Shown piece after piece: positions 3,522 to 54,924 of a stretch of 64,000 nucleotides of DNA. Position numbers and translations under genes: made by a program. The notes beneath the pieces are model-generated. The model saw only the letters and a list, made by a program, of their open reading frames with translations. It was not told where the DNA came from and searched no databases. Source of the stretch: an uncultured Bacteroidota bacterium (GTDB lineage: Bacteria > Bacteroidota > Bacteroidia > Bacteroidales > CG2-30-32-10). Every line of letters begins with the position of its first letter. The first letter of the stretch is position 1. Location of the stretch: NCBI GenBank assembly GCA_963831005.1, contig CAWHOW010000045.1, positions 9,878 to 73,877 of the forward strand, given 5' to 3'.

Positions 3522-3899
3522 CTGATGATTTGGTAGGCAATATTGAAGATAACTGAAACAACAATAATGATAATCTCTGCAAAAAGGATAACCCGACACT
3601 GATTGTTGATGATAACCACAGCTAATTTGATGATTACCGTAAAGTATTTGATGATAACCACCTGTAATTTGATAAATACCATACGGTAATTGATAAATAC
3701 TGTACGGTACTTAATGAATACTGTACGGTAATTGATAACAACCGTTCGGTACTTAATGAATACCGTTCGGTATTTGATGACAATAACTGCAAAAATGATA
3801 AATCGGCTTCAATTATTGATGACAACCGAAGCCGAATTGATAAATTACCACTGATTATTGATGACTATCGTTCGGTATTAAATAACAATAGCGCCATAC
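3522..3899. repeat. 21-bp-phased degenerate tandem array 1 (18 units, core TTGATGAtAAC)
   Basis: Units start at 3522, 3543 ... 3879 with exact 21-nt spacing and no indels. Examples: ttgatgataaccacagctaat, ttgatgattaccgtaaagtat, ttgataaatactgtacggtac. The core contains TGA TGA TAA, so all + frames are closed; the longest - ORF is 63 aa. Confidence 0.85.
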
Positions 3900-3920
3900 T
3901 TTAAAAATATGGCGCTATTG
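3886..3920. terminator. strong hairpin (13-bp stem), possible terminator
   Basis: caatagcgccata / tatggcgctattg around the loop ctttaaaaa, with modest T-rich sequence on both sides. It could terminate the minus-strand gene 4070..4741 or a plus-strand transcript of array 1. Confidence 0.45.
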
Positions 3921-3969
3921 TTTACGAATATATCTTAAAAAGAAATGAGTGTATTTAAACAGAAGCCTC

Positions 3970-4060
3970 CATTGCGAGCTTGAATCCGTCATTGCGAGGA
4001 GGAACGACGAAGCAATCTTATCAATGAATTAAAGATTGCTTCACTTCGTTCGCAATGACG
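3970..4060. repeat. REP-like palindrome, second copy of the cattgcgagg/gaagcaatc family
   Basis: cgtcattgcgaggaggaacgacgaagcaatc, a loop, then gattgcttcacttcgttcgcaatgacg. Shares about 30 nt almost exactly with 1764..1794. Confidence 0.8.
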
Positions 4061-4069
4061 ATAAAAAAT

Positions 4070-6601: not shown

Positions 6602-7004
6602 TAGGAACATTAAAATGGAAAGAAGAAATTTGTAATAGAATGGTTCAATCATAAGTTATCTACTTCTTCAATTTCTCTGTGTCCCTCCGTGCCTTCTCAA
6701 TGCCCTCTGTGGTTAAACTTATTTTACACTCGCCACATTAAGTTTTATCAGAAAACGCTAAAAGGCACATTCAGTAGATAAAACGTTCAAAATAAAATCA
6801 TCTAAATCATTACCCCAACGAATTACGAATCATGCACGAACTTACGATTTACGGGAGTGGCAAAGGATTCGTACTTCGTAAGTTCGTATTTTTATTCGTA
6901 CTTCGTTGTAATGCCCGGGCGAAGTTATATTAGGAGTTCTGCAAAATCAAAACAAAACATTGTTAAGTAGTTTATTCCCGCCTTGCATGGAATTAAATTT
7001 TATT

Positions 7005-11268: not shown

Positions 11269-11949
11269 ATGAAAATTCTAGTCGTATCGGCAACATTCAA
11301 TGAGATCAAAGCTTTGGTTGATCTATTGGAATTGATTGAAAGGAAAGATGATTTTCTCTCTCGATATAAGCTGGATATTAATAAAGAAGTTGATGTGCTT
11401 GTGACGGGCATTGGTATTGCATCCACAGCATATCAATTAGGCAAGTATCTTGTTACGAATAAATGTGATTTTGCTTTCAATTTTGGTATTGCAGGTGCCT
11501 TTGATAAGTCTCTAGGCATAGGTGATGTGGTGAATGTAGATACAGATATTATTTCGGAACTCGGTGCTGAAAATGGTCAGTCTTTCCTGAATTTTGATGA
11601 GTTGAATATGGGAAAAGGCAGCATTGAAAAAACTATATGGAAAGTAAAGAATGATAGTAATATTTGTAATGTTGTATTACAGAAATTGCCAAAAGTAAAA
11701 GACATAACAGTTAATACAGTGCATGGCAATAACGATTCAATTAATAAAGTGATGCAAATCTATCATCCCGATATTGAGACAATGGAGGGGGCTGTATTTT
11801 TGCATATCTGCAATTCCGAGAAAATAAAATGTGCCCAAATTCGTTCTGTTTCAAATTATGTTGAAGAAAGAAATACAGGAAATTGGAATATTCGGTTAGC
11901 TATTGAAACACTTAATGAAACAGCTTTACGGATTATAAATTCTTTATAA
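11269..11949 (+). CDS. mqnB: futalosine hydrolase (nucleoside phosphorylase family)
   Basis: PNP/MTAN-like pattern (KILVVSATFNEI, GIGIASTAY, ETMEGAVF), directly abutting mqnD. The start at 11269 is favoured because TAACTTTG (11240..11247) lies just upstream. Confidence 0.65.
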   Translation: MKILVVSATFNEIKALVDLLELIERKDDFLSRYKLDINKEVDVLVTGIGIASTAYQLGKYLVTNKCDFAFNFGIAGAFDKSLGIGDVVNVDTDIISELGAENGQSFLNFDELNMGKGSIEKTIWKVKNDSNICNVVLQKLPKVKDITVNTVHGNNDSINKVMQIYHPDIETMEGAVFLHICNSEKIKCAQIRSVSNYVEERNTGNWNIRLAIETLNETALRIINSL

Positions 11950-12813
11950 ATGAGCTTTGGTAAATCTGAAATCGTAAATCGTAAATCTAAAATAACTCTC
12001 GGGTTTTCTCCTTGTCCAAACGACACATTTATTTTTGATGCGATGGTTCATGGGAAGATTGATACCGAGGGTTTGTATTTCGATTATATTTTAGCTGATG
12101 TAGAAGAGCTTAACAGGCGGGCATCCAATAATGAGCTTGATGTTACCAAATTGAGTTATTTTGCTTTCGCTTTTATTTCGGATAATTACCAATTGCTGAA
12201 TTCGGGTAGTGCATTGGGAAATAAATGTGGCCCTTTGCTGATCAGTAAAAATGAGATTCCGCTTTCAGAACTCAGAAATTATTCAGTTGCTATTCCTGGA
12301 AAACATACTACTGCTAATTTTCTTTTCAGCATCGCATTCCCTGATGCAGCAAATAAACAGGAAATGCTATTTTCCGACATAGAAAATGCTATTCTTCAGG
12401 ATAAAGTTGATGCAGGAGTGATCATTCATGAAAACCGCTTTACTTATGGACAAAAAGGTTTGGTGAAACTTATCGACTTGGGAGAATACTGGGAAACCCA
12501 AACAAAAATGCCTATACCTCTTGGAGGGATTGCAATTAAACGTTCATTACCTGATGAGGTTAAAAAGAAAGTTGACAGGGTTATTAGCCGCAGTGTGGAA
12601 TATGCTTTTGCAAATCCACGTTCCGCCTATGATTTCATAAAATCAAATGCACAGGAAATGAATGAGGAAGTGATGTATAAACATATTGAACTTTATGTAA
12701 ACAAATTTTCTATCGATCTTGGTGAAGAAGGGAAAAATGCAGTTAATACTATGTTTGAAAAAGCAAAGGAACTGAATATTATTCCTCTCATGCTGGAAGA
12801 CATTTTTGTTTAA
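11950..12813 (+). CDS. mqnD: 1,4-dihydroxy-6-naphthoate synthase
   Basis: LGFSPCPNDTFIFDAMVHGKID is the hallmark N-terminus of MqnD. The ATG overlaps the mqnB stop codon (taaatg). The first about 14 codons contain the odd repeat aaatcgtaaatcgtaaatc. Confidence 0.7.
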   Translation: MSFGKSEIVNRKSKITLGFSPCPNDTFIFDAMVHGKIDTEGLYFDYILADVEELNRRASNNELDVTKLSYFAFAFISDNYQLLNSGSALGNKCGPLLISKNEIPLSELRNYSVAIPGKHTTANFLFSIAFPDAANKQEMLFSDIENAILQDKVDAGVIIHENRFTYGQKGLVKLIDLGEYWETQTKMPIPLGGIAIKRSLPDEVKKKVDRVISRSVEYAFANPRSAYDFIKSNAQEMNEEVMYKHIELYVNKFSIDLGEEGKNAVNTMFEKAKELNIIPLMLEDIFV

Positions 12814-12853
12814 ACAGTAAAAATTTATTTTCATACTTTTACTAAAAAATATT

Positions 12854-13819
12854 ATGATAGTTGTAACAGGCGCAGCGGGCTTTATTGGAAGCTGCATGGT
12901 GAACAAGCTGAACAATAAAGGTTATCGGGAAATAGTAGTTGTAGATGACTTTTCCACTCCCGCAAAGAATAAGAACCTTGAAGGGAAAGCATTTGTTCAG
13001 AAGGTTCATCGCAATGATTTTTTCAACTGGTTAAAGGAAAACCATTCATCTGTTACTTTTGTTTTTCATCTCGGAGCACGCACGGATACTACAGAATTTA
13101 ATATTGAGATATTCAACAGACTCAACCTTAATTACAGCAAAACCATGTGGAATGCCTGCGCTGAATATAACATTCCGCTTATTTATGCATCGTCTGCCGC
13201 CACTTACGGTATGGGCGAATTCGGTTACAGCGACAATCATGAACTGCTTGAAAAATTAAAACCGCTTAACCCTTATGGCGAATCGAAAAATGATTTTGAC
13301 AAATGGATGCTACATCAGGATGGGAAACCTCCTTACTGGGCAGGTGTAAAATTCTTCAATGTTTACGGGCCTAATGAATATCACAAAGGGAGAATGGCAT
13401 CGGTTGTGTTGCATGCATACAAGCAAATTAAAGAAACTGGAAAAGTAAAATTATTCCGTTCGCATAATCCTGATTATAAAGACGGCGAACAACTTCGTGA
13501 TTTTATTTATGTGAAAGATATCATTAATCTTCTCTGGCTTGGAATGATGTACAAGCAAAACAGCAGCATTTACAATATGGGAACAGGCAAAGCCCGTACT
13601 TTTCACAGCCTGGCTACAGCAGTCTTCAATGCTTTAGGAAAACCTGTCAATATTGAATTTATTGATACCCCTGAAGACATCCGTGACAAATACCAGTACT
13701 TTACTCAGGCTGATATGAGCAAACTGCATTCACTTGATTACAATATTCCATTCTATTCGCTGGAAGACGGGATTGAAGATTACGTGCAGGGATATTTGAT
13801 GAGTGGAAATTATTATTAA
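12854..13819 (+). CDS. hldD: ADP-L-glycero-D-manno-heptose 6-epimerase
   Basis: Collinear with E. coli HldD/RfaD as recalled: MIVVTGAAGFIGS, YASSAATYG, FFNVYGPNEYHKGRMASV, YQYFTQADM. Confidence 0.9.
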   Translation: MIVVTGAAGFIGSCMVNKLNNKGYREIVVVDDFSTPAKNKNLEGKAFVQKVHRNDFFNWLKENHSSVTFVFHLGARTDTTEFNIEIFNRLNLNYSKTMWNACAEYNIPLIYASSAATYGMGEFGYSDNHELLEKLKPLNPYGESKNDFDKWMLHQDGKPPYWAGVKFFNVYGPNEYHKGRMASVVLHAYKQIKETGKVKLFRSHNPDYKDGEQLRDFIYVKDIINLLWLGMMYKQNSSIYNMGTGKARTFHSLATAVFNALGKPVNIEFIDTPEDIRDKYQYFTQADMSKLHSLDYNIPFYSLEDGIEDYVQGYLMSGNYY

Positions 13820-15244: not shown

Positions 15245-17071
15245 TTGAAAAAATATTTCTATAGTCTATTATTATTTTGCTTTTTATTTGGAATAAGCCA
15301 TTCTTTTGCCCAGCAAAGAAAAATAGATAGCCTCCAATTACTTTTACATTCGGCTAAAGAAGATACGGTAAAAATAAACTTACTTAATGACTTATGCTGG
15401 GAATATAAATTTTCAAATCCATATACCGCACTGTTATTGGCAAAACAAGCATTATCACTATCTCAAAAAGCTCTTTACTCCAAAGGAATAATACAAGCTT
15501 ATTCGCGGACAGGAGTGATATATTCGAGCATGTCTGAATATAAAAAGGCTTTTGAAAACATGTTCAACTCACTAAAAATAGCTGAATTATGTAACAACAA
15601 AGATGGTATGGTAAGCGCGTATAACAATATTGGTATTCTTTATAAGGGACAAAAACAATACGATAAGGCATTAATTTATTATTTTAATGCCCTTAAAATA
15701 AATATAGAAGGCAAAGACAATACACGAATATCTGCTAATTACGATAATATTGGAAACATTTATTTTTTGTCAGGTTTATATCATAAGGCTCTTAATTATT
15801 ACATTATGGCATTGAGCATAGAAGAAATAAATAATAAATACGGTATGGGCAATTCGCTGAACAATATGGGAAATTGCTATTTGAAATTAGGAGATGATTT
15901 TAAGGCGGAAGAATGTTATCAAAAATCTTTAAAAATAAAAAGAGAAATTGATGATAAAAGAGGAATAACTTCCACACTGATAAACATTGCCGATATTTAT
16001 AAAAAGAATCGAAAATACAAAGAAGCAACAAAATATTATAATGATGGTCTCCCGATTGCAAGACAGATAAGCGCTAAATCAATAATAAAAATGTTGTATG
16101 GTCGTATTGCCACTATGGATTCTTTGTTTGGCGATTTCAAAAACGCATTTATTTACTATCAATTATATTATGCGATGAACGATAGTATTTATAATGAGAA
16201 TAGCCAAAAAGTTATTGCCGAAATGCAAACCAAATACGAAACAGAAAAAAAGCAAAGAGAAATTGAAATTCAGAAGTTAAAAATCGACAATATCAATGTG
16301 GTAAAAAGGAACCTGTGGCTGTTACTAAGCGTATGCATGTTACTTCTTTTATTGACACTATTGTTTTTTAATCGTTATCGTATTAAACAAAGAGAAAAAT
16401 TAAGCATATTGCAAATCGCACAACAGGAAACGCTTTTCAAAACCATCATAAAGATACAGGAAGATGAGCGCAATCGTTTTTCTAAGGATATACACGACGG
16501 AATGGGACAATATCTTTCTGCTTTAAAAATGAATATCAGCAGCTTAATGCCTAAATATAATCATCATACAAATGAAATGGAAAGCAGTGTTAATGATATT
16601 AATGAATTAGTTGATGAATTATACAAAGAAATACGAAATATTTCATTCAATATTATGCCTGCTGTTCTTGTAAATAATGGACTTTTTTCGGCGCTTGAAG
16701 AATTGACAGGAAAAATAAAAAAAACAAGCGGTTGTGATATAAAGCTGGATACATTTTATTGTATTAACAGGTTTGATTCGTTATTTGAAATAAACATTTA
16801 TCGTATTATCCAGGAATTGTTAAATAACATAATAAAATATGCAAAGTCGACAAATATAAATGTTCAAATTACTCAGCATGAAAATGAACTTAATATAATA
16901 ATTGAAGATAACGGGATTGGATTTGATACCGCTTTATTAGATAAAAACACCGGAAATGGCTGGCGCAATATAAAATCAAGACTGCAACTTCATAAAGGTA
17001 CAATTCATATCGACTCTGAACCTGGAAGAAGAGGTACAACTGCAATAATTGATATTTCATTAATCAACTGA
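15245..17071 (+). CDS. TPR-repeat sensor histidine kinase (NarL/HisKA_3 type)
   Basis: Signal peptide, multiple TPR-like repeats, one TM segment, an H-box (FSKDIHDGMGQYLSAL) and an ATPase domain (DNGIGF, GNGWRNI). TTG start. Confidence 0.85.
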   Translation: MKKYFYSLLLFCFLFGISHSFAQQRKIDSLQLLLHSAKEDTVKINLLNDLCWEYKFSNPYTALLLAKQALSLSQKALYSKGIIQAYSRTGVIYSSMSEYKKAFENMFNSLKIAELCNNKDGMVSAYNNIGILYKGQKQYDKALIYYFNALKINIEGKDNTRISANYDNIGNIYFLSGLYHKALNYYIMALSIEEINNKYGMGNSLNNMGNCYLKLGDDFKAEECYQKSLKIKREIDDKRGITSTLINIADIYKKNRKYKEATKYYNDGLPIARQISAKSIIKMLYGRIATMDSLFGDFKNAFIYYQLYYAMNDSIYNENSQKVIAEMQTKYETEKKQREIEIQKLKIDNINVVKRNLWLLLSVCMLLLLLTLLFFNRYRIKQREKLSILQIAQQETLFKTIIKIQEDERNRFSKDIHDGMGQYLSALKMNISSLMPKYNHHTNEMESSVNDINELVDELYKEIRNISFNIMPAVLVNNGLFSALEELTGKIKKTSGCDIKLDTFYCINRFDSLFEINIYRIIQELLNNIIKYAKSTNINVQITQHENELNIIIEDNGIGFDTALLDKNTGNGWRNIKSRLQLHKGTIHIDSEPGRRGTTAIIDISLIN

Positions 17072-17077
17072 AGCAAT

Positions 17078-17710
17078 ATGGAAAATGAACCTGACATAAA
17101 AATCCTTATCATTGATGATCACCAGATTTTAATTGACGGCATAAAAAAATTGTTGTTTCAATCAAAATTTAAAGTGATTGCCGAAGCTAACAACCGAGCC
17201 GAAGCTTTAGCTGTTATTTCAATCACGGATATAGATATTATTATATGTGATATTAGTATTCCCGACATAAATAACGGGATGTTGATTATTAAAGAAATCA
17301 GGAAAAAATTCCCTGAAATTAAAATTGTTGTTTTAAGCATGCACGATGAAAGAAGTATTGTTTATGATGCGATCAACTATGGTGTAAGCGCATATTTATT
17401 AAAAAATATAAACCAGGAACAATTAATATGTGCCCTGAAGAAAGTGCAAATGAATAAATTTTATATAAGTGAAGAAATTTCCGACTACCTGGTAGAAAAA
17501 TTTCGTAATGCCCCCGACCCATTTTTGTCTGATCGTGAAAGCGAAATACTCAAGCTTATCATAAGGGAATATTCTAATAAAACAATAGCCGAAACATTGT
17601 TCATAAGTGAACGGACTGTTGAAACGCACCGGAAAAATATTTACCGGAAAACAAATTCAAATACTATTGTCGGTTTAATTAAATATGCTATTGAAAACAA
17701 ACTCGGTTGA
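17078..17710 (+). CDS. LuxR/NarL-family response regulator
   Basis: Receiver domain (ILIIDDH, DIIICDISIPD) plus a C-terminal LuxR HTH (LSDRESEILKLI..NKTIAETLFISERTVETHRKNIYRK). Confidence 0.9.
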   Translation: MENEPDIKILIIDDHQILIDGIKKLLFQSKFKVIAEANNRAEALAVISITDIDIIICDISIPDINNGMLIIKEIRKKFPEIKIVVLSMHDERSIVYDAINYGVSAYLLKNINQEQLICALKKVQMNKFYISEEISDYLVEKFRNAPDPFLSDRESEILKLIIREYSNKTIAETLFISERTVETHRKNIYRKTNSNTIVGLIKYAIENKLG

Positions 17711-17724
17711 AGTCTTTTCTTACG

Positions 17725-19110: not shown

Positions 19111-19211
19111 GTAAATTGAAACAAATAACAAAAGGATTTTTTCCTGAAAAACGAGTAAATCAACAAGATGCAACAAAAGAATCCCATACCAAAGCAAGAG
19201 TATTCCGTCGC

Positions 19212-19841
19212 CTCGTCTGACATCACGCTCAGCTTGTTTAGTAAATTGGCCGCCTCGTCTAGCGTAACGACCACTTCATTAAGTACGATGCCCACGTCAT
19301 ATAGCGAGACGACCAACACGTTTTGCAAGACGCCCACATCGTTTAGTACGGTGTCCATATCATTGAGCAAAATGCCCATCTTGTTAAGCACGACGCCGAA
19401 AACATTTTACATGATGCCCGCATCATTGAGTATAATGACCACTTCGTGGAGTACGATGCCCGACTTGTTCGGCTCAATGTCCGACTATTTGAGCATGATA
19501 CCTACGTTATTGGTTATAAAGCCCGCATCATTTAGTGTAACTATCAAGTCGTTAAGTACGATGCCCGCTGTGTTCAGTATGGCGACCACCTCGTTGAGTA
19601 TGACGCCGTTCGCGTTGGGCACGACACCCATCACGTTTAGCATGATGCCCATCACGTTTAGCACAATGCCGAACACGTTTAGCACGACGCCCATCACGCT
19701 GAGCACGACGCCCATCACGTTGAGTATGACGCTCATCACGTTGAGTATGACGCTCATCACGTTGAGCACGACGCTCATCATGTTTAGCACGACGCCCATC
19801 ACGTTGAGCATGATGCCGAACACGTTGGGCGCGATACTAAA
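19212..19841 (+). repeat. 21-bp-phased degenerate tandem array 2 (30 units, consensus cacgttgagcacgacgcccat), embedded in open ORF 19168..19926
   Basis: Units at 19212 + 21n with no indels. The right-hand units are near-identical (19716 and 19737 are identical) and the left-hand units are strongly diverged. One + frame is open for 252 codons from ATG 19168, with heptads such as TPITLST. Confidence 0.9.
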
Positions 19842-19911
19842 CGACCCCGCCGTCGGGAAAATAGTGCCGGGCAAGCGGAACATTAACCTGAATTATTATT
19901 CACGAGTTATA

Positions 19912-20097: not shown

Positions 20098-20865
20098 ATG
20101 GCAAAAAAAGTTTTAAGTAGAAAGCTGATATTAACAGCAGATTTCACGGGCTTGACCCTTGAAGAAAAATTAACCAAGCAAGCCAACATGGCAAAAGCAC
20201 AGACAAATAACCCCCTGTTGGTGCCGGGTTTAAATCCTACTGCAGCAGCAGTGGAGGCGGATATTACAGCCCTTACCGACCCCATTTCTGGGCTGATACA
20301 CGAACGCGGCGTGATAAGGGCACAGGAAGAATCGCTTACTTTGGCAATAAATAAAGCCGAAACGGCTATTAAGGATATTATTGTGAGCCAGTGGATGCCC
20401 CAGACACAGACAGCGCTTACCGGCACAACTAATGCCGAAGTTAATGCAGCATTACTGCTGTTTGGTATTAAAGGGCAAACTTCGGGGCATACCCCGGTTA
20501 CAGTGGCAAGTTTATCCAAAACGGCTTCGAGCGCCCCTGTTATAGTAAAAATTGATATTGACGTGCATGGGCAGCATATACTGCATGTGCATAATAATAT
20601 CACGGGCAAAATAGGGCACCCGAAAGATGTGCTGAGGGTAGATATTTATGCACAAACGGGTGGCACTGCCCCTGCCAACCTTGCTGCTTTGGTTACCAAT
20701 GGGGGAGGATGGCTTGGCACAACCAAGCGCGGTAAATACATTAACCAGTTTACGGTAACCGCCGCCAACCAGGGAAAGGTGGAATACTATATAGCGGTAT
20801 ATATAGAAAAAGCTACAAAGAAACCGGGTGCGCAAAGCGTGCCCGAAAGCGCTATGATTGAATAA
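20098..20865 (+). CDS. hypothetical protein (helical N-terminal half, beta-sandwich-like C-terminal half)
   Basis: 255-aa ORF with ATG start. No family recognised. The architecture loosely resembles 4070..4741. Confidence 0.6.
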   Translation: MAKKVLSRKLILTADFTGLTLEEKLTKQANMAKAQTNNPLLVPGLNPTAAAVEADITALTDPISGLIHERGVIRAQEESLTLAINKAETAIKDIIVSQWMPQTQTALTGTTNAEVNAALLLFGIKGQTSGHTPVTVASLSKTASSAPVIVKIDIDVHGQHILHVHNNITGKIGHPKDVLRVDIYAQTGGTAPANLAALVTNGGGWLGTTKRGKYINQFTVTAANQGKVEYYIAVYIEKATKKPGAQSVPESAMIE

Positions 20866-38926: not shown

Positions 38927-39475
38927 GTTCACTCAGAAAAAGGGTACGTTCACCCAAAATTAGCATATGTTCACGAAGTTTAGTTGGTTTTCCTTGATTT
39001 CGCTGACGTTTTAATGTATTATTGTATCAAACAATCGTTCTTTAACATCCTGATGGTAGTACATTCCCCAAAGCAGGGAGCATTAATATCAGACGTACGT
39101 GTAGTAATTATATCCACGTGGGTAGTGTTTGTATCTACGTCTTCCTTTGCTGCTAGCACATCTTTCGTTACCAGAACTACGTTGTCAGTTACTGCAAAGA
39201 TAGCTTCATTAACAGGAGACAGGTCTTCAATAATGGAAGCTATGGCTTCAATAACTGCAGCTAAGGCTTCAGTAACTGCAAAGATGGCTTCAATAATGGC
39301 AGACAGGTCTTCCATAACTGATGCTACAACTTCAATAACTACAGCTATAATTTCAGTAACTGCGGCTATGACTTCAACAATTGCAGCTATGTCTTCAATC
39401 ACTGCCGCTGTACATACAACAACTGCCGCTATGGATAGCATAACTATTACGACCGCCAAAGATATTAATGTTGTG
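38927..39475 (+). repeat. 21-bp-phased degenerate tandem array 3 (about 26 units, consensus gcttcaataactgcagctaag)
   Basis: The best units lie at 39224..39412. Weak in-phase units run upstream as far as three GTTCAC motifs at 38927, 38948 and 38969 (spacing 21 and 21). The + ORF 38984..39502 (heptads ASITAAK, ASVTAKM) and a - ORF are both open. Confidence 0.85.
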
Positions 39476-39871: not shown

Positions 39872-40822
39872 ATGAACAAAAGACTTATATTATTTTTTTC
39901 GATAATAATGATAAACTATTTTTCTTTCGGGCAAATAACAGATAAAGAGAAGGAGCTTCTTGCAAAAACTGCCGATACTCTTGATGGCTGGAAAACGGGC
40001 GGTACTTTTACATTTAATTTAAGCCAGCTTTCATTGACCAACTGGGCTGCAGGAGGGCAAAATTCTCTGGGAATTAATGCTCTGGTAAATGTCTTTGCCA
40101 ATTTAAAACATAAGAATTCGGAGTGGGACAATACGCTTGATATGGGTTATGGATTGATACACCAGGGCGGTAAATCCGAGACTTACCAGAAGAGCAACGA
40201 TAACTTCGAATTCAATTCCAAATACGGGCAGAAAGCTTCGAAAAGCTGGTTCTATGCCGCTTTGCTGAACTTTAAAACACAATTCGCACCCGGCTATAAT
40301 TACCCGAACGATAGTGTGAAGATATCCGATTTACTAGCTCCTGCTTACCTGATAGGTGCGTTAGGCATGGATTATAGACCAAATAATGTATTCGATTGTT
40401 TTATTGCGCCGGTTACGGGTAAATTGATAATTGTAAATAATACTACCCTTGCCAACACAGGCGATTTTGGTGTTACCAAGGCCGTTCTTAATGATTCAGG
40501 TAAAGTTATTACTCCCGGTAAGAAGACAAAATTTGAATTTGGCGGATACATTAGGACTTCTTTAACGAAAGACATTATGAAAAATGTTAATCTATATACA
40601 GAAGCAGACTTCTTCTCAAATTATTTACAGAACCCGCAAAACATTGTTGTCAACTGGCAAATGCTTATTTCAATGAAAGTGAATAAATTTATTGCAGCAA
40701 CTTTATCAGCGCAACTTATTTATGATGATAAAGCTAAAATAGTGATTGATTCGAAAGGTGATACAGGTCCCAGAACACAGTTTAAAGAATTGTTCGGAGT
40801 GGGATTTTCTTACAAGTTCTGA
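39872..40822 (+). CDS. DUF3078-like outer-membrane beta-barrel protein
   Basis: Signal peptide, W.TGG.F.FN.SQ.SL.NWAAGGQNS and a C-terminal aromatic residue (SYKF), as recalled for DUF3078. Confidence 0.65.
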   Translation: MNKRLILFFSIIMINYFSFGQITDKEKELLAKTADTLDGWKTGGTFTFNLSQLSLTNWAAGGQNSLGINALVNVFANLKHKNSEWDNTLDMGYGLIHQGGKSETYQKSNDNFEFNSKYGQKASKSWFYAALLNFKTQFAPGYNYPNDSVKISDLLAPAYLIGALGMDYRPNNVFDCFIAPVTGKLIIVNNTTLANTGDFGVTKAVLNDSGKVITPGKKTKFEFGGYIRTSLTKDIMKNVNLYTEADFFSNYLQNPQNIVVNWQMLISMKVNKFIAATLSAQLIYDDKAKIVIDSKGDTGPRTQFKELFGVGFSYKF

Positions 40823-40852
40823 TAATTATAAGCACTAATAAATTCATTGATC

Positions 40853-43102
40853 ATGACCAAATCAGCAAATATCATAGATAGGGTAAGCAATTTAAAAAGT
40901 CTTATTAAGCCCGAAGATAACAGACACATATGGCAATTTTCGCGTGTAGGTGGAGTTAACAGGGTGAACCTTGAAACAGGTATGGACCTTGTTTCGCTTG
41001 AACACCTTGACCAAAAACTATGGACTGCATTAAGCTGCCCTGTTCACGGAATGGAGATTGATTCAAAGACTCTTGAGTTAATTGATAAGGATAAGGACGA
41101 CAGAATAAGGGTACCCGATATACTTGAAGCAGTAAAATGGCTTACTTCGCTTGTTAAAAACCCTGACGATTTGGTTAAGGAAAACCAAAGCCTACCTCTT
41201 TCTGCCATTAACGACAGCGGTGAAGAAGGGAAGAAATTACTTACTTCTGCCCATCAGATATTGACAAATTTGGGAAGACCTGATGATGAAGAAATATCTG
41301 TGGAAGAAACTTCCGACAGGGATAAAATCTTTGCCAATACTAAATTAAACGGAGATGGCATTATAACAGAAGATTCGTCAGATGATGAAAATATAAAGAA
41401 ACTCATCAATGAAATTATTTCCTGCATGGGCTCGGCAACAGATCTCAATGGCAAACAGGGTATTTCAATTGACCATATCACTGACTTTTATCAGAACTGT
41501 GTAGATTATTCTAACTGGTATACAAAAGCAGAAGCCGATCTGAAAAAGATTTTGCCCTATGGCGATTCTACGGATGCTGCATATGCATCGTTCACTGCTG
41601 TTAAGTCTAAAATTGAAGATTATTTCCTGAGATGCCGTTTAGCTGATTTTGATGCGGATTCCGCAGGAATCTTAAATTCTCTCAATTCAAGATATGAAGG
41701 AATAATAGTTAAGGATCTAACTTCATGCATTGATGAAATTGCTGCTTTTCCGCTTACTAAGATCGAAGCCCAAAAGCCACTATCTCTTACCAAAGCCATT
41801 AATCCGGCATGGGAAAAAGCAATTGATGACTTCAAGGAATTAGTTGTTAAACCCGAATTTTTAGATAAGGCAAACCTTACAGAAGCTGATTTAAGTATTA
41901 TTATTGGCAGGTTTGTTGATTACTGCAAATGGCAAACTGAGAAGAGTGGTGTTGCTGTTGAAAAATTGGGATTGATGCGCATACGTGAATTATTGGCAGG
42001 CAATTCGAAAGAGATGCTTTGCTCATTGATAGAGCAGGACAAAGCGCTGGAGGATAACACAAATAATATTTTCCTGGTTGATAAATTAGTAAGGTATTAC
42101 CGCGACCTATATACTTTGCTAAAAAACTATGTTACATTCTATGATTTTTATAAGCCGGAATCAAAAGCGATATTTCAGGTAGGCAGCTTGTATATTGATC
42201 AGCGTTCCTGCGACCTTTGCATAAAAGTGAGTGATATGAGCAAACATAACTCACTTGCTGGTTCAAGTGGAATCTGCCTTATTTATTGCAACTGTTTTTC
42301 GAAGTTAAAGAATGAGAAAATGACCATTGTGGCTGCTCTGACCGATGGTAATATTGATAACCTTTCAGTGGGAAGAAATGCAATATTTTACGACAGGAAA
42401 GGCGACGACTGGGATGCTACTATTGTTAAAATTGTTGACAATCCGATAAGCATCAGGCAGGCATTCTGGTCGCCATACAGGAAGGTTTCCAAATTCATTT
42501 CTACGCAGATTGAAAAAGTTGCTTCGGCTAAAGAGAAGGAAGTGCATGCAACAACTACATCCCATATTGAAAAGACAAGCGATAAGGTAGATACCGGAAT
42601 AAAAGAATCTATGAAAGCAACTCCTGTGGAGGCAGCTCCAGCGCCACAGCAACCATTTGATATTGGAAAGTTTGTAGGGATATTTGCAGCTATCAGTCTT
42701 GCTCTTGGAGCTATTGGCTCCGTTGTAGCATCAATATTAACAGGCTTTTTCGGACTGGCATGGTGGAAAATGCCGCTTGCAGTGGTTGGCATTATCATTT
42801 GTATTTCAGGTCCGTCAATGATACTGGCATGGCTTAAATTGAGAAAAAGAAACCTTGCACCTTTATTAGATGCAAATGGATGGGCAATTAATGCACGTGC
42901 CACCATCAACATACCTTTTGGAAATACCTTGACTCATATTGCAGCCTTACCTGTTAATTCAAAACTAAACCTTGTTGATCCTTTTTCAAAAAAGAAAAGA
43001 CCGCTTTTCCCAATTTTAATAATTCTGATTATTGCACTGAGCATTGCCACATATCTGCTATGGCATTTCGGAATTTTAGATAAATGGGGGATTTTACGTT
43101 AA
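40853..43102 (+). CDS. hypothetical large protein with C-terminal transmembrane region
   Basis: About 750 aa. The soluble N-terminal part has an EF-hand-like DKDKDDRIRVPD, and 3-4 hydrophobic helices sit near the C-terminus. No family recognised. Confidence 0.6.
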   Translation: MTKSANIIDRVSNLKSLIKPEDNRHIWQFSRVGGVNRVNLETGMDLVSLEHLDQKLWTALSCPVHGMEIDSKTLELIDKDKDDRIRVPDILEAVKWLTSLVKNPDDLVKENQSLPLSAINDSGEEGKKLLTSAHQILTNLGRPDDEEISVEETSDRDKIFANTKLNGDGIITEDSSDDENIKKLINEIISCMGSATDLNGKQGISIDHITDFYQNCVDYSNWYTKAEADLKKILPYGDSTDAAYASFTAVKSKIEDYFLRCRLADFDADSAGILNSLNSRYEGIIVKDLTSCIDEIAAFPLTKIEAQKPLSLTKAINPAWEKAIDDFKELVVKPEFLDKANLTEADLSIIIGRFVDYCKWQTEKSGVAVEKLGLMRIRELLAGNSKEMLCSLIEQDKALEDNTNNIFLVDKLVRYYRDLYTLLKNYVTFYDFYKPESKAIFQVGSLYIDQRSCDLCIKVSDMSKHNSLAGSSGICLIYCNCFSKLKNEKMTIVAALTDGNIDNLSVGRNAIFYDRKGDDWDATIVKIVDNPISIRQAFWSPYRKVSKFISTQIEKVASAKEKEVHATTTSHIEKTSDKVDTGIKESMKATPVEAAPAPQQPFDIGKFVGIFAAISLALGAIGSVVASILTGFFGLAWWKMPLAVVGIIICISGPSMILAWLKLRKRNLAPLLDANGWAINARATINIPFGNTLTHIAALPVNSKLNLVDPFSKKKRPLFPILIILIIALSIATYLLWHFGILDKWGILR

Positions 43103-43411
43103 CTTTTATTTCAAGTGAATTTAGGTTATATTACAACAGCTGTTTCTTGGATGTTAGCTTTGTAAAATGAATTTGATTCAGATTTATTTAAAAAGCTAAA
43201 AGGGAAACATCTTTTTTCTTTGCAAGACATTTTAAAAAGAAAAAAGATTGGGTATAAGACATTCAAAAATGTATATCTGTCACTAAAGCCTAAGTGCTTC
43301 ATCCCTGATTTCAAGAGAAAGTATGAAAAAGAGAACTGATATTTTATAATGCATCCGTTGAAAACCCTTATTTTGAAATCTACAACAAGTTTCTGATGCG
43401 GTGGATGCAGC

Positions 43412-43456
43412 ATAAAGAAAAATCACACATTATGTGTGACACATTTTGTGTGATAT
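43412..43456 (-). terminator. probable rho-independent terminator of the xanthine-dehydrogenase operon
   Basis: Palindromes tcacacattatgtgtga and cacattttgtg. On the minus strand the hairpin is followed by tttttcttt, about 70 nt downstream of the stop at 43525. Confidence 0.5.
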
Positions 43457-43524
43457 TGTTTTGCTAAGTAAACTATGGGAAAGAACATTCTGAAAATTTA
43501 CTAGTGTAGTACACTGAAACTTAC

Positions 43525-44186: not shown

Positions 44187-44652
44187 TTAATCCAAAACTG
44201 ATTTGAAAATAAAACGTTCATCATAATTTATTTCAAAACTTTCAAGCAGCTCTTTATATTCATCAATAAACTTTTTCTTTTTATGATGCTCTTTCTGATT
44301 CATGATGTAATTAACAACAGTTGGTAATTGTGATTTGCTATACGAAAATGCACCATAGCCTTCTTGCCATGAAAAATGTCCCCTGAAAACTTTCTTTTCA
44401 TTAATCCATTTTGAAGAGCTGCCCTTAATGTCTTGCAGCAGATCAGATAAAGATTGTACGGGTCGCATTCCAAATAATACATGAATATGATCGGTACGCC
44501 CTGTTTATTGCTAATGGTTTATGGTTATTTGTTTTAATTATACCCATGATATATTTGAATAACTCTTCTTCCAGACTTTGTGAAATAAGGCATTCTCTGT
44601 TCTGAACAGCAAAAACAGCATGTATATGAATTTGAGTGAAAGTGTTGGCCAT
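44187..44652 (-). pseudogene. IS200/IS605-type Y1 transposase (RAYT-like), disrupted by a 1-nt frameshift
   Basis: ORF 44443..44652 (MANTFTQIHIHAVFAVQNRE...AIN) and ORF 44187..44468 read as one protein. Shifting frame near 44499..44505 (aacaggg) restores ..DHIHVLFGMRPVQSLSDLLQDIKGSSSKWINE. Confidence 0.8.
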
Positions 44653-51204: not shown

Positions 51205-51534
51205 ATGTTATTCCGCTTCCGTCAATATATTGCCGTATTTCTATTGATGACAATATCATTGTTTATTGTCCCGAAGGAATATATTCACGATACTTACGGA
51301 CACGAAGACACTAAGGATATTCAAAGCAAGGATGCTTCTCTTACAAATACCCACCATCACTGTCAAATATTAAATTATAATACTCCTAATTATATTTTTC
51401 ATCATAAAACTTTATTACTGCCTGTTTCCTTTATCGAACAATCCATTTTATCATACAGGCAATTTTCTTACATTATTCCATTCTTCACTTATTTTAACCT
51501 TAGGGCGCCTCCCGAAGAAAATTTCCACGTTTAA
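51205..51534 (+). CDS. hypothetical small membrane protein, His-rich
   Basis: One N-terminal TM helix, then H-rich segments (HDTYGHED, THHHCQ, FHHK). Lies upstream of a TonB-dependent receptor. TAATTTTG at 51177..51184 is a possible -7 box. Confidence 0.4.
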   Translation: MLFRFRQYIAVFLLMTISLFIVPKEYIHDTYGHEDTKDIQSKDASLTNTHHHCQILNYNTPNYIFHHKTLLLPVSFIEQSILSYRQFSYIIPFFTYFNLRAPPEENFHV

Positions 51535-51613
51535 TTATTACAATTCCATTTTTAATTTTTCATGCACGGTTCTGATGAAGAACGTGTGAATTTCAATAAT
51601 AATATTTAAAAAA

Positions 51614-54094
51614 ATGACAAAGAATATCATATTATCATTATTTATAATAATTGTGTCTGGCGGGGTGGCGATGTCGCAGAATGTGCTTAGCGGCAGGGTT
51701 AGCGACTTTCGAAGTGGAGAGTCACTTCCGGGAGTTACTGTTTACATTCCCGACTTGAAAACAGGAGCAATTACAGATACTACAGGGCTTTATGAAATAA
51801 CCAATCTCCCTAAAACAAAAGTGCTTGTCCAGGTAAGTTTTCTTGGATATAAAACTCTTAATCGTTTCATTGACTTAAAAAATACTAATTCGATGGACTT
51901 CAAAATGGAAGAATCTGTTGCGGAAATGAACACAGTGGTAGTTACGGGAATATCAAGCGCTACTGAAATGAAAAAAGAACCTGTTCCCATTGTTGCTATC
52001 GACAGAAAAGAAATAGATCAGGGTATCAGCACAAATATAATTGATGCTATTGCTAATCTGCCCGGAGTTAGTGCAGTTACTACCACGCCCAATGTTTCGA
52101 AACCTTTTATTCATGGTCTTGGTTATAACCGTGTGCTTACTTTGGTCGATGGTGTTCGCCAGGAAGAACAGCAGTGGGGCGATGAGCATGGCGTGGAAAT
52201 GGATGAGTATGCCACCGACAGGATAGAAGTGGTTAAAGGCCCGGCCAGTCTTATATATGGTTCCGATGCACTTGCCGGTGTTGTAAATCTTATTTCTGCA
52301 CCACCTGTACCTAATAATACTATAAAAGGAAATTTTCTTGCAGAATATCAAACTAATAATGGCCTGATTGGAAGCTCTGCTTCGCTTGCAGCAAATAAGA
52401 ATGGTGTTATCTGGGGAGGAAGAATATCTCATAAAGAAGCTACCAATTACCAGGACCCGATTGACGGTCGTGTGTTTGGTACAGCCTATAATGAATCGGA
52501 TGCAAACGGCTATGTGGGGTTAAATAAGAAGTGGGGTTATTCTCATCTTAACTTTTCTCTTTTTGATGACCAGCCTGAAATACCTGATGGCAGCCGCGAT
52601 TCAGCAACACATAAGTTTACAAAACAAATAACGGAAGCTGATACAGCAAGGCCAATTGTTTCCAATTCTGAATTAAAATCATACAAGATCACTCCCCTGC
52701 ATCAGCATGTGCAGCATTTCAGCATTGCATCGCTGAATAATTTTATTATTGGTTCTGGTAAGCTTGAGGTAAATGTTGGCTGGCAGCAAAGCGACCACAG
52801 GGAATACAGTCATCCGCAGGCAGCCGATACTCCAGGGCTTGACCTTACTTTGAATACGTTGACTTATGATATAAAGTATTTATTGCCTGAATCGAAAGGA
52901 TGGGAAACAACAGTAGGTGTAAACGGCATGGAGCAGATCAATAACACAGATAAAGCCACTGAATTCATTATTCCTGATTATAACCTTTTCGAAATAGGCC
53001 CTTTTGCACATGTAAAAAAGTCATTCGATAAATTGGAATTAAGTGCAGGAGCAAGGTACGACAATCGTTTCTTTAATAATAAACAAATGTTTACCAATAC
53101 AAATCCCTCAACAGGTTTTGACGAGCAGGTTGCCTTGCCTGATACTGCAGGAGCTAAACAAACTTTCTCGAATTACAAGCACACCTTTTCGGGCGCTTCG
53201 GGCAGCATGGGCGCTACTTATAATATTTCGGATAAATTCTTTATTAAAGCTAATGTTGCTCGTGGTTTCAGGGCGCCTAATATTTCCGAGTTATCGGCAA
53301 ATGGTGTGCATCCCGGAACAGCTATGTACCAGATCGGCAATCCCGATTTTAAACCTGAGTTCAGCCTGCAGGAAGATATTGGCCTTTTCTTTTCTTCAAA
53401 GTACGCTAATGGAAGCGTTGAATTGTTCAACAATAATATAGATAACTATATTTTCAACCAGCGATTACTTAAACACGATGGGCAGGATTCGAACTACACA
53501 AGCGAGATACCTTATTTTAAGTTCGAGCAATCGCATGCCGAACTTTATGGGGGAGAAGTAAGTTTTGATATCCACCCACATCCTTGGGACTGGCTGCATT
53601 TCGAGAATGAATTGTCGGTAATTTATGCTGAGAATTTAGGTGGAAATGGAATACATGTAACCGACAGTTCGAAGTATCTGCCGTTTATTCCACCTTTGCA
53701 CTGGCATTCTGAACTAAGAGCTAATGTGAAGAAAAAGTTTAAACATTTCTCTTCTTTTTATGCTAAAGTTGAAATGGATTATTTTGCAACGCAGAATAGG
53801 GCTTTTCTGGCCAACAATACCGAAACCGTTACGCCGGGCTACACATTGATAGGCGCAGGAATAGGCGCCGATATTACCAACAGGTTGGGTAAAGTGCTGT
53901 TCAGCTTTGATATTTCGGCAAATAACCTGGCTAATGTAGCTTACCAGTCGAACATGAGCAGGTTGAAATACATGGATTTTTATGTTAACCACGAAGGAGA
54001 ACCTGTAAGCGTATCCGGTCCTGGGAGTGGTATTTACAATATGGGAAGGAATATTGGCTTTAAAATTATTGTTCCTATCAATAGCAAATACTAA
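51614..54094 (+). CDS. TonB-dependent receptor with N-terminal carboxypeptidase-regulatory-like domain
   Basis: The pattern SGRVSD..SGESLPGVTVYI, a plug (VVVTG..., IEVVKGPASLIYGSDALAGVVNLI), a large barrel and a C-terminal aromatic residue. Confidence 0.9.
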   Translation: MTKNIILSLFIIIVSGGVAMSQNVLSGRVSDFRSGESLPGVTVYIPDLKTGAITDTTGLYEITNLPKTKVLVQVSFLGYKTLNRFIDLKNTNSMDFKMEESVAEMNTVVVTGISSATEMKKEPVPIVAIDRKEIDQGISTNIIDAIANLPGVSAVTTTPNVSKPFIHGLGYNRVLTLVDGVRQEEQQWGDEHGVEMDEYATDRIEVVKGPASLIYGSDALAGVVNLISAPPVPNNTIKGNFLAEYQTNNGLIGSSASLAANKNGVIWGGRISHKEATNYQDPIDGRVFGTAYNESDANGYVGLNKKWGYSHLNFSLFDDQPEIPDGSRDSATHKFTKQITEADTARPIVSNSELKSYKITPLHQHVQHFSIASLNNFIIGSGKLEVNVGWQQSDHREYSHPQAADTPGLDLTLNTLTYDIKYLLPESKGWETTVGVNGMEQINNTDKATEFIIPDYNLFEIGPFAHVKKSFDKLELSAGARYDNRFFNNKQMFTNTNPSTGFDEQVALPDTAGAKQTFSNYKHTFSGASGSMGATYNISDKFFIKANVARGFRAPNISELSANGVHPGTAMYQIGNPDFKPEFSLQEDIGLFFSSKYANGSVELFNNNIDNYIFNQRLLKHDGQDSNYTSEIPYFKFEQSHAELYGGEVSFDIHPHPWDWLHFENELSVIYAENLGGNGIHVTDSSKYLPFIPPLHWHSELRANVKKKFKHFSSFYAKVEMDYFATQNRAFLANNTETVTPGYTLIGAGIGADITNRLGKVLFSFDISANNLANVAYQSNMSRLKYMDFYVNHEGEPVSVSGPGSGIYNMGRNIGFKIIVPINSKY

Positions 54095-54252
54095 GATATT
54101 ATTTACACAAGGGAGTATATAATATAGAAGGCTGCCAGGCTGCCAGACAAGGGTTTTTTAACATTTCACGGCGAGGCCGAACAGAAGAACAAGTTTCCCT
54201 CTATGTTTTGGCCTCCTCTTATTGGAATAAATCTTTTGCACCGGGGTTCATT

Positions 54253-54924
54253 GAAGTTTCTTTGAACAGTTCAGCAGTTGCTGGGAAGAGCTACGCATGT
54301 GCGTGGAAGAGTTCAGCAGTTTCTGCGAAGAGTTTAGCAATTGCCGCGGATGTCCACGCATGTGCCGGGAACAGTTTGGCAGTTGCCGCGAAGAGTTTAG
54401 CAGTCTCCGCGAAGGTCGTGGCAGTTGCCGCGAAGATCGTGGCGGTTGCCGCGAACAGTTTGGCGGTTGCCGCGAAGAGTTTGGCTGTTGCCGCGAAGAG
54501 TTTGGCAATTGCAGCGAACAGTTTGGCGGTTGCCGCGAAGAGTTTGGCAGTTGCCGCGAAGATCGTGGCGGTTGCCGCGAACAGTTTAGCATGTGTGTGG
54601 AACAGTTCAGCAGTTGCTGGGAAGAGCTACGCATGTGCGTGGAAGAGTTCAGCAGTTTCTGCGAAGAGTTTAGCAATTGCCGCGGATGTCCACGCATGTG
54701 CGTGGAACAGTTTGGCAGTTGCCGCGAAGAGTTATCCCTGTGCGTGGAACAGTTTAGCAATTGCTGCGAAGAGTTATCCCTATGCGTGGAAGAGCTACGC
54801 ATGTGCGTGCAAGAGTTATCCCTGTGCGTGGAAGAGTTTGGCCGTTGCCGCGAAGAGCCACGCATGTGCGTGGAAGAGTTCCCCCTGTGCGTGGAACAGT
54901 TTGGCAATTGCCACGAGGAGTATT
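54253..54924 (+). repeat. 21-bp-phased degenerate tandem array 4 (32 units; subtypes gcagttgccgcgaagagtttg and gcatgtgcgtggaagagttca)
   Basis: Units at 54253 + 21n with no indels. The 102-nt block 54264..54365 is repeated exactly at 54600..54701, an offset of 336 bp or 16 units. Two + frames and one - frame stay open for more than 215 codons. Confidence 0.9.

Follow-up and report, generated by a model that had tools for sequence, protein, structure and literature searches.

The four arrays of 21-nt units that lie in the window (the whole stretch of 64,000 nucleotides analysed, from an uncultured Bacteroidales lineage) are non-coding tandem repeats of a catalogued kind, in which the unit has a constant size (20-21 nt) and a variable sequence. 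Unit length is fixed at exactly 21 nt, and the typical unit combines a short conserved linker motif with a hairpin or other small palindrome. Growth and shrinkage of the arrays proceed by entire units, in register, and their sequence turns over rapidly, up to complete replacement of the units between strains. Their appearance is that of nucleic acid with a regulatory or structural role rather than that of genes, and whether they are cis-acting arrays of linker and mini-hairpin, working at least partly as single strands (RNA), is in our judgement an even call.

TRF identified arrays of period 21 at all four sites, and a scan of the window at lags 4-69 returned, at these sites, lag 21 and its multiples only; the sole other periodicity in the 64 kb, a lag of 9 at 28.1-28.6 kb, corresponds to a collagen-like gene. 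Within the arrays, identity at lag 21 is 0.58-0.81, as compared to 0.14-0.28 at lags 20 and 22 and to a window background of 0.30. Stacked at fixed 21-nt steps, the arrays keep a single register free of indels over 18 (A1), 30 (A2), 16 (A3) and 32 (A4) units; thus, the exact register of the original prediction stands, while its range of 18-32 units becomes 16-32. As also predicted, all four are intergenic, being flanked by long ORFs, and their unit consensuses are unrelated to one another, with GC contents as first given or within one base.

A1 (3522..3899, unstranded; clearest at 3606-3878) comprises 18 units of 21 nt, each formed by a conserved core, TTGATGA, and a variable part of 14 nt that is often a small palindrome (TACCGTACGGTA). 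Its folding energy, compared with column-permuted controls, has a z of -3.1 on the + strand and -3.4 on the - strand, and neither strand is singled out as the favoured one for the hairpin. A close strain carries three additional 42-bp blocks in this array, in register. A1 ends about 50 bp upstream of a canonical Bacteroidetes promoter (3442..3473, - strand; TTTG, 20 nt, TAACTTTG) belonging to the thioredoxin gene 2708-3352, and lies outside any transcript from that promoter. As read from the sequence, a GC-rich hairpin (AATAGCGCCATA...TATGGCGCTATT; 3887..3919, unstranded) abuts and slightly overlaps the last, degenerate unit of A1; it is followed at about 3960-4062 by a REP-like long palindrome, whose motif is seen again at 1753-1776. 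A3 (39101..39436, unstranded; 16 units, TCAATAACTGCAGCTATGTCT) had been placed from 38927; the array is confirmed from about 39101, while its extension back to about 38927 is weak and degenerate, the lag periodicity of 38927-39100 being only 0.39. It lies at one end of a segment of 4.8 kb (38765-43524) that is missing from the close relatives L081-L086.

A2 (19212..19841, + strand; 30 units, the youngest and most uniform at the 3′-end, CACGTTGAGCACGACGCCCAT) is one of several related arrays found upstream of homologues of a 255-aa gene (20098..20865, + strand), the product of which has a helical N-terminal half and an Ig/FN3-like C-terminal domain. Members of this gene family are consistently preceded by a 21-bp array: each of the six homologue loci examined, with identities as low as 57% and differing contexts, has one just upstream of the gene, and in four of the six the gene is then followed by genes for type IX secretion cargo or components. 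The columns C.CGTT..G are common to the arrays at five of the six loci (five genomes), down to 66% protein identity. The motif AAAATAGTG (19858..19866, + strand), which adjoins A2, recurs at the homologue loci L100, L141, L142 and L144, in the last one on the opposite side of the array, and is degenerate in L140. Homology with L100 starts just before A2, at a 38-nt leader (19165..19202, + strand; containing ATGCAACAAAAG...) that is 94.7% identical in the two loci, with no homology between them upstream of it; the two arrays are then orthologous unit by unit, and the indel count proposed along with the original prediction gives zero over 230 nt at 33.5% divergence. The old A2 units have diverged about as much as the adjacent gene has at synonymous sites (0.335 versus a pS of 0.38). 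What the A2-type arrays retain is a linear motif and not a helix, which is weak in them, and by folding energy they are no more structured than permuted controls. In L141 and L142 the arrays are preceded by predicted canonical promoters, and would thus be transcribed as leaders. Heptamer micro-arrays also occur in the window, as at 19910-19942, adjoining A2.

A4 (54253..54924, + strand) contains 32 units, each consisting, on the + strand, of a 16-nt hairpin (6-bp stem, 4-nt loop) and the linker AAGAG. It is downstream of, and co-directional with, a TonB-dependent receptor gene (51614-54094), with no terminator predicted between the two, and it converges on ribE. Pairing cells amount to 81.9% on the + strand versus 55.6% on the - strand, and the G·U-compatible pairs number 40 and 2, respectively; the covariation score is 0.399 versus 0.179 in shuffles, none of the 500 shuffles reaching the observed value. 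The ribE-TonB locus carries mutually unrelated 21-bp arrays in three strains. L087, the positional counterpart of A4 with unrelated sequence, favours the same transcriptional strand (86.7% of cells pair, versus 60.2% on the opposite one), and both arrays have one hairpin per unit with G·U pairs and covariation; at this locus, the hairpin is held on one strand via G·U pairs and compensatory changes despite unrelated sequences between strains. Elsewhere, the L144 unit joins a 5-bp hairpin, variable in its loop, to a linker that is conserved, and its G·U pairs fall on the gene strand; L142b shows compensatory pairs with the favoured strand antisense to the flanking genes, and the main units of L093b have no hairpin. 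Hairpins specific to one strand, as in A4 and arrays related to it, speak for a single-stranded, RNA-like reading of some arrays. Two 21-bp copies (54965..55005, - strand), each containing TAATTTTG, which is a -7 box of the Bacteroidetes type lacking a -33 box, point into A4; their relevance to the array is uncertain.

According to the reading we prefer, the arrays would be cis-acting multivalent platforms presenting many identical modules at 21-nt steps, to be engaged by a factor able to bind along nucleic acid or to oligomerise on it. Some of them at least would act in the transcribed single strand, as 5′ leader or 3′ UTR RNA, and might modulate expression or stability of adjacent genes; the 21-nt step might follow that of a protein oligomer, or else correspond to two turns of the template's DNA helix. 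Against this reading, nothing at the RNA level obviously calls for such a step, hairpins are not a general property (A2-type arrays and L093b main units), and no motif common to the arrays that would indicate one binding factor was found. In addition, the favoured strand is antisense in L142b, neither strand stands out in A1, which is also upstream of its promoter, and G·T-tolerant hairpins could equally form in the single-stranded DNA of the lagging-strand template. Two of the hypotheses initially put forward, phased DNA sites and structured or protein-binding RNA, both survive.

The first of these, that the arrays are purely double-stranded DNA elements with the same site on one helix face every two turns, is a real though minor possibility. 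They would then provide a platform for a DNA-binding or nucleoid protein, or architectural DNA beside promoters, and the palindromes of 6-16 bp present in most units would be sites for protein dimers. At 10.5 bp per helical turn, 21 bp make two turns, and the other constant size given for bacteria in PMC8161180, 52 nt, would by our reckoning be about five turns; A1, L094a, L087 and L142b are upstream of promoter -7 boxes, and retention of a linear motif instead of a helix in A2-type arrays would also fit. Strong curvature is predicted by two wedge models for L093b; however, this is the sole strongly curved array, one of the models gives a marginal result for A2, and nearly all arrays tested are no more curved than permuted controls. 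Moreover, recognition of a duplex would not lead one to expect the one-sided surplus of G·U-compatible pairs or the compensatory changes in A4, L087, L142b and L144. The arrays have neither a motif nor a neighbouring DNA-binding gene in common, and A4, flanked by convergent gene ends, is remote from any promoter.

All the non-coding arrays found in the lineage, in the window and in related loci, have a period of 21, as anticipated for an element class that recurs with a single fixed period and with unrelated units. A search of about 1.8 Mb of other Bacteroidota gave two matches, the weak L058 and the array L122, which probably belongs to a near relative; the arrays are lineage-specific and abundant in one Bacteroidales/Bacteroidia lineage. 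Close strains differ in the presence or absence of arrays, indicating that none is essential individually, and complete replacement of the units is seen between strains with 81-89% identity in the flanks. Copy-number differences between strains correspond to whole units (105 bp; three blocks of 42 bp), higher-order blocks of 42-105 bp also occur, and no indel was detected inside any array, diverged units included, while ordinary intergenic DNA of the lineage has about 0.035-0.046 indel events per substitution.

Much of this behaviour would suit functionless or selfish minisatellites, namely hairpin-prone 21-mers multiplied by slippage during replication and by unequal recombination where intergenic DNA tolerates them; hairpins and strand bias would simply be what expands best in single-stranded DNA. 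The strain-dependent presence, the swapping of units, the higher-order blocks and whole-unit changes, and the near-synonymous divergence of the old A2 units all agree with such an origin, as does the GC skew, which suggests that the + strand is here the lagging-strand template. We nevertheless consider it unlikely: slippage alone leaves unexplained the exclusive period of 21 and the absence of indels, as well as the array upstream of every examined 255-aa homologue, and the motif of these arrays is kept at a protein identity where neutral DNA would be unrecognisable.

Genes for fast-evolving heptad-repeat proteins, born of expanding 21-mers, had been proposed as well; protein coding by the arrays is not supported, and this origin is very unlikely. 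Long open frames do occur on both strands of A2, A3 and A4, a component of period 3 shows up in the autocorrelation of A2 and A3, codon usage is gene-like in A3 and L093b (non-genic in A1, A2 and A4), and gene callers annotate ORFs on several arrays. The + frame of the A2-type arrays is open in five genomes and ends 10-20 nt before the next gene in four, with an orthologous pN/pS of 0.58 between A2 and L100 and a third-position excess (35, 23, 19; p about 0.07). However, stop-free 21-mers give open frames by chance, A1 has stop codons in six of six frames, L087 has no open frame, the + frame of L142 lacks an ATG, GTG or TTG start, the candidate minus frames are interrupted by stops in the window or in L140, and no frame is maintained across the relatives. 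The variable positions had been equated with wobble positions; instead, entropy per codon phase is nearly flat, between-unit pN/pS is about 1 (0.6-1.2) in every frame, and the invariant columns of the A2-type arrays include a wobble position and form the contiguous block CGTT. The peptide also changes character among genomes (TLSTMPI, SFGFNLF, or EPERDGD in another frame), array frames match no family in Pfam and NCBIfam, and the minus-strand ORF of A3 has zero homologues among 5.8 billion proteins.

A known repeat-bearing system, be it CRISPR-like, the iterons or centromere sites of plasmids and phages, or a MITE with an internal minisatellite of the BrickBuilt type, is extremely improbable despite the likenesses considered below, since the arrays contain no spacers, no rep, par or cas genes were seen among the ORFs scanned in part of the window, non-orthologous arrays have no leader, tail or terminal inverted repeats in common, each array has its own unit, and Rfam gives no match; the initial view that they are neither CRISPR, nor ordinary micro- or minisatellites, nor a classical iteron set is upheld.

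Iterons and repeat-type partition centromeres are direct repeats of 17-22 bp in helical phase, acting as cooperative protein-binding platforms, and the spacing of iterons, about two helical turns (about 22 bp), recalls that of the arrays. Iterons number about 3-12, adjoin rep or par genes and have one sequence per replicon, whereas here 16-32 copies are found on a chromosome, with several unrelated arrays in 64 kb. The REP/BIME elements of enterobacteria are small hairpin-forming units of transcribed extragenic regions, often at convergent gene ends, and A4 resembles such an array of 3′-UTR hairpins; REPs measure about 35 nt, have one genome-wide consensus and alternate in orientation, not being strictly tandem. 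A REP-like palindrome of another kind is present in the window too.

BrickBuilt, a minisatellite-MITE of Porphyromonas gingivalis, likewise comes from the Bacteroidales and is comparable for its always intergenic, spacer-less tandem repeats of about 21-23 nt; promoter activity has been reported for it and effects on neighbouring genes discussed (PMC4596501). Its 19 copies all have one 23-nt unit, with leader and tail parts ending in inverted repeats (PMC4596501), whereas the present units are unrelated, with a period of 21 nt and flanks not in common. Borg tandem repeats create new intrinsically disordered regions in proteins, as stated in the abstract of PMC9879509; these and the intergenic heptamer repeats of prokaryotes (PMC6344855) are similar to the arrays in independent origin and rapid evolution. 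With the exception of L122, autocorrelation detects no 7-nt sub-period within the 21-mers.

Subirana and Messeguer (Int J Mol Sci 2021, PMC8161180, citing J Bacteriol 2020 202:e00229-20) described tandem repeats of bacteria, of unknown function, whose units keep one size (20-21 or 52 nt) but vary in sequence; since the repeats are already catalogued at the class level, the original prediction of an undescribed class fails. In the available part of that source, they are non-coding and species-specific, occurring mainly in Bacillus and Paenibacillus, plus Cyanobacteria and Actinobacteria, with no Bacteroidota found among the cases; the authors remark that 21 nt make two helical turns, and suggest a role as RNA or as a platform for nucleoid proteins. 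The same part was not found to contain an array family conserved upstream of one gene family, locus-level replacement by unrelated arrays or strand-specific covarying hairpins. Unlike the repeats it describes, those reported here belong to an uncultured Bacteroidales lineage and have no species-wide short “signal” in common. Like them, they form several non-coding arrays per genome, with one length (21 nt) and unrelated sequences, and the class represented by A1-A4 is lineage-specific and only partly common to strains.

The sequence of the window is chromosomal and belongs to an uncultured member of the Bacteroidales; taken from a 184,724-bp contig, the window includes genes for AlaRS, ribE, dnaX, ribosomal proteins, TonB-dependent receptors and type IX secretion cargo. 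A scan of lags 4-69 over all 64 kb detected lag 21 and its multiples at exactly four places, the sole other periodicity being lag 9 at 28.1-28.6 kb, in a collagen-like gene. The corresponding arrays of 21-nt units occupy 3522-3899 (A1), 19212-19841 (A2), 39101-39436 (A3) and 54253-54924 (A4), and Tandem Repeats Finder reports period 21 at about 3606-3780, 19592-19834, 39185-39433 and 54264-54901. The four sites of the original prediction thus have the expected period; only the start proposed for A3, 38927, needs correction, since periodicity is weak from there and clear from about 39101. All four arrays, at a density of four in 64 kb, are flanked by long ORFs and are therefore intergenic, as had been proposed; their neighbours encode a thioredoxin, an HTH protein, type IX secretion cargo, AlaRS, a TonB-dependent receptor and ribE. 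In fixed steps of 21 nt one register is held, without any indel, over 18 (A1), 30 (A2), 16 (A3) and 32 (A4) units, and it is kept regardless of the fact that many units are just 50-65% like the consensus of their array; identity at lag 21 is 0.58-0.81 within the arrays, versus 0.14-0.28 at lags 20 and 22 and a window background of 0.30. The consensus units are unrelated to each other, and no cross-similarity was found between non-orthologous arrays, so that both the exact register despite diverged units and the different consensus of each array were read correctly from the start. A REP-like long palindrome, of the GTCATTGCGAGG...CCTCGCAATGAC type, occurs in intergenic DNA at 1753-1776 and 3960-4062, and one of these sites adjoins A1.

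Comparison with loci and contigs from other genomes (L-numbers) indicates that the length of the unit is protected, while its sequence is nearly free. The old units of A2 pair one-to-one with those of the array in L100, with 33.5% divergence and zero indels over 230 nt; the neighbouring gene has diverged to a similar degree at synonymous sites (pS 0.38), whereas in ordinary intergenic DNA compared among these genomes indel events number 0.035-0.046 per substitution. What distinguishes close strains is the number of entire units: L094 is devoid of 5 units (105 bp) relative to L093, and a close strain has three additional 42-bp blocks in A1.

Entire arrays are also replaced. In the spacer between ribE and the TonB-dependent receptor gene, three strains whose flanks are 81-89% identical carry 21-bp arrays with unrelated units, namely GCAGTTGCCGCGAAGAGTTTG in the window (A4), GTTACAGGTGCACACCCACAG in L087 and TCTGTAGAAAATGCCGCAAAA in L093; no homology beyond chance was found among the three arrays, the remainder of the spacer is unalignable, and more distant relatives have no array at this locus. 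A GC.GTTGC likeness between A4 and L093b, an array in L093, was judged not significant. Beside the L087 array, at 11297-13766 of that contig, a Peptidase_S74 gene (tail-spike chaperone domain) with a collagen-like stretch is inserted, and the event left the 3' end of the TonB-receptor gene duplicated over 170 bp. A3 lies in a 4.8-kb segment of the window (38765-43524) that separates the stop codons of the convergent AlaRS and Fer2 genes, is absent from six related contigs and contains, besides the array, a 56-aa membrane-like ORF, a DUF3078 protein, a 751-aa protein and a 95-aa ORF; terminal repeats were looked for around A3 and the segment, with a negative result. Further downstream, at 44187-44468 on the minus strand, a truncated IS200-like Y1 transposase (93 aa, C-terminal half only) is located between Fer2 and xanthine-dehydrogenase genes, and an intact 154-aa copy is found at the same place in the relatives L081-L086.

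One of the array families is associated with an operon. The gene downstream of A2 (20098-20865, plus strand) codes for a 255-aa protein, whose homologues form a small family in Bacteroidia MAGs. In all six homologue loci examined, which range from 100% to 57% protein identity and have differing genomic contexts, a 21-bp array is found upstream of the gene, in the same orientation and with 20-170 bp between its end and the start codon; at four of these loci the gene is followed by genes for type IX secretion cargo or components. Five of the six arrays have in common the columns C.CGTT..G....A..C....T, a block that covers a wobble position in the open frame and so is more suggestive of a nucleic-acid motif than of a peptide. 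The sixth, in L144, has a different unit and lies on the opposite side of a conserved AAAATAGTG motif, suggesting that here an array arose independently within the same regulatory region. Canonical Bacteroidetes promoters are found upstream of the arrays in L141 and L142, and these arrays would accordingly be transcribed as leaders. The 255-aa protein itself was considered as a possible array-binding protein and rejected, as its predicted structure comprises a helical N-terminal half and an Ig/FN3-like domain, with no DNA-binding fold in the model.

The surroundings of these loci contain other genes of note. Just upstream of A2, the region 15245-19110 encodes a TPR-HisKA_3 sensor kinase, a LuxR-type response regulator, a TPR protein and an XRE-type HTH protein, a neighbourhood not conserved at other A2-type loci. 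Downstream, at 27848-30564, a collagen-like gene (G-X-Y, period 9) is followed by one for a PKD/glycine-rich protein, both within a type IX secretion cluster (Por_Secre_tail, CHU_C, PorP/SprF). Directly upstream of the array in L100, a cassette resembling a diversity-generating retroelement (L100:2645-9121) includes a reverse transcriptase (RVT_1, 397 aa) among four PTL_trimer genes, two of which also have Lcl_C (C-type-lectin-like) domains.

The units of several arrays share a design, a small hairpin combined with a linker. In A4 a 6-bp stem with a 4-nt loop is joined by the linker AAGAG, and the plus strand is favoured: 81.9% of cells pair on this strand versus 55.6% on the minus strand, shuffles giving 68.4% with none of 500 reaching the observed value. 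The covariation score is 0.399 versus 0.179 in shuffles, pair 4-13 is found as GC, CG, AU and UG, and there are 40 G·U-compatible pairs on the plus strand and 2 on the minus strand. The unrelated unit at the same locus in L087 forms a 7-bp stem with three G·U pairs and a 4-nt loop on the strand co-directional with the TonB-receptor gene, where 86.7% of cells pair as compared to 60.2% on the opposite one. The L144 unit has a 5-bp stem, a variable 3-nt loop and a conserved 8-nt linker, with wobble pairs on the gene strand, and that of L142b, an array in L142, has a 5-bp stem with compensatory pairs and wobble on the minus strand. In A1 small hairpins are present in about half of the units, with no strand preference. 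Folding energy is significant against column-permuted controls for A1, L142b, L093b and L122, and about zero for A2-type arrays, which have only a weak 3-bp helix and do not exceed the controls in stability. The hairpin design was found in 6 of about 10 unrelated array families; being strong in some arrays and weak in the A2 type, it is common but not universal. In some arrays, then, the constraint acts on one strand, which could be an RNA or the single-stranded lagging-strand template; GC skew suggests that the plus strand is the lagging-strand template here.

We favour a reading of these sequences as cis-acting nucleic-acid arrays whose modules combine a linker with a mini-hairpin, with selection on the length of the unit and, in at least some of them, constraint as single strands. 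Candidates for the origin of the 21-nt rule are the helical phasing of DNA and the step of a putative binding factor. As to DNA shape, two wedge models gave no general intrinsic curvature of the arrays and strong curvature in L093b only, which has phased A-tracts. A more specific version, which we consider improbable, is that a dedicated factor encoded by the lineage reads the 21-nt step, the arrays being transcribed into strings of hairpins and linkers that titrate or scaffold an oligomeric RNA-binding protein, or whose cleavage at every linker releases phased small RNAs about 21 nt long. If this were true, the arrays would be a bacterial counterpart of satellite or small-RNA clusters, and their repeated independent birth, in the ribE-TonB spacer and upstream of the 255-aa gene, would reflect selection for platforms or a ruler-based generating process.

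A residual 7-nt sub-period, as expected from an origin by heptamers, is absent from the arrays except L122. According to PMC6344855, intergenic heptamer repeats are the commonest class in prokaryotes, and 7-bp tandem micro-arrays occur in the window at 6867-6906, 11960-11991, 19910-19942, 22802-22830, 24913-24935, 28837-28871 and 31101-31132; one of them directly follows A2, and a similar one follows the L093 array (L093:6189-6239).

According to an alternative explanation, also part of the original prediction, the arrays encode heptad-repeat, coiled-coil-like proteins. Gene callers do annotate ORFs on several of them, the A2 plus-strand ORF begins at an ATG conserved in the window and L100, and codon-usage log-odds are gene-like for A3 and L093b, on both strands in each case; those of A1, A2 and A4 fall short of the range seen in real genes. 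A1 has stop codons in all six frames, and the L087 array has zero open frames. In the A2-type array of L142 the plus-strand ORF has no ATG, GTG or TTG, in that of L140 there is just an internal TTG, and the alternative minus frames of this type are interrupted by stops in the window or L140. Between units pN/pS is 0.6-1.2 in every frame, with the lowest values often in frames filled with stops, Pfam and NCBIfam scans of the arrays gave zero family matches, and nothing homologous to the A3 minus-strand ORF was detected among 5.8 billion proteins. Six-frame translation, pN/pS (for units of one array and for orthologous units), codon usage, family scans and protein search thus give no support to a gene, and no intact, start-bearing ORF conserved in relatives under purifying selection was found. 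The protein hypothesis is therefore unlikely, and the arrays are non-coding, with residual doubt for A3 owing to its gene-like codon usage; they mislead gene callers into annotating spurious heptad "proteins".

The arrays are specific to the lineage and hardly occur in 1.8 Mb from other Bacteroidota. In 1.45 Mb around the AlaRS genes of 80 other Bacteroidota one weak lag-21 stretch was detected, and in 0.33 Mb around ribE of 34 metagenomic relatives arrays are confined to the closest ones; loci of the same lineage, or of relatives with the 255-aa gene family, contain about one array per 10-20 kb. Every non-coding array in the related loci has period 21. In contrast, a period-54 repeat in L141 (18809-20732) truly encodes a K/A/D-rich protein, its sequence being broken by an assembly gap (N bases). 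A further 21-bp array (TTCAATTGTTTGTTCCCTACA) is located upstream of dnaX in another strain (L093:1-220 and L094:1-320), and the matching site of the window (61031-61174) has none. Short-read contigs (L089-L092, L095, L096 and L098) often end within or beside arrays; the arrays thus explain the breaks of these assemblies at such sites, and copy numbers from such contigs are unreliable.

Among known repeat systems, iterons and partition centromeres differ in having few identical units, against 16-32 diverged ones here, as originally noted, and in their rep/par neighbours, absent from these flanks; CRISPR arrays had rightly been set aside, the units being contiguous with zero spacers. No cas genes were seen among the ORFs scanned, which cover part of the window. 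No array matches an Rfam 15 covariance model at gathering threshold or E <= 1. The nearest Bacteroidales precedent is BrickBuilt, a 23-nt minisatellite inside a MITE of Porphyromonas gingivalis, with one shared unit and conserved ends (PMC4596501). No shared unit, leader or tail, terminal inverted repeats or other mobile-element ends were found here, and non-orthologous arrays have no common flanks; a MITE of this type was therefore rejected.

A closer match is provided by the repeats of Subirana and Messeguer (PMC8161180), which are reported to come in two sizes only, 20-21 and 52 nt, to be species-specific and generally non-coding, and to occur in groups that include Bacillus, Paenibacillus, Cyanobacteria and Actinobacteria; the authors equate 20-21 nt with two turns of the helix, and propose a protein polymerising along the DNA or transcription into small or sponge RNAs. 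Our arrays share the single 20-21 nt length of this class (all four in the window and all non-coding ones in related loci), the variation of unit sequence between arrays, the intergenic, non-coding character (with the doubt on A3 given above), and a lineage-specific, partly strain-conserved distribution, A3 being missing in relatives and the A4 locus differing in three strains. They lack just the optional short species-wide signal, described there for many species but not all: 4-6-mers common to the arrays are no more frequent than in shuffled units. The idea of an undescribed element class is thus not sustained; the finding is real and striking, and is a new member of a kind already known and unexplained. 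Constant-size, variable-sequence tandem repeats of bacteria are a published puzzle. For such repeats this lineage is unusually informative, since an array family accompanies a gene family over deep divergence and, at one locus, unrelated arrays swap, keeping period, hairpin design and strand; together with the high density of arrays, these features make the question "why 21 nt?" testable.
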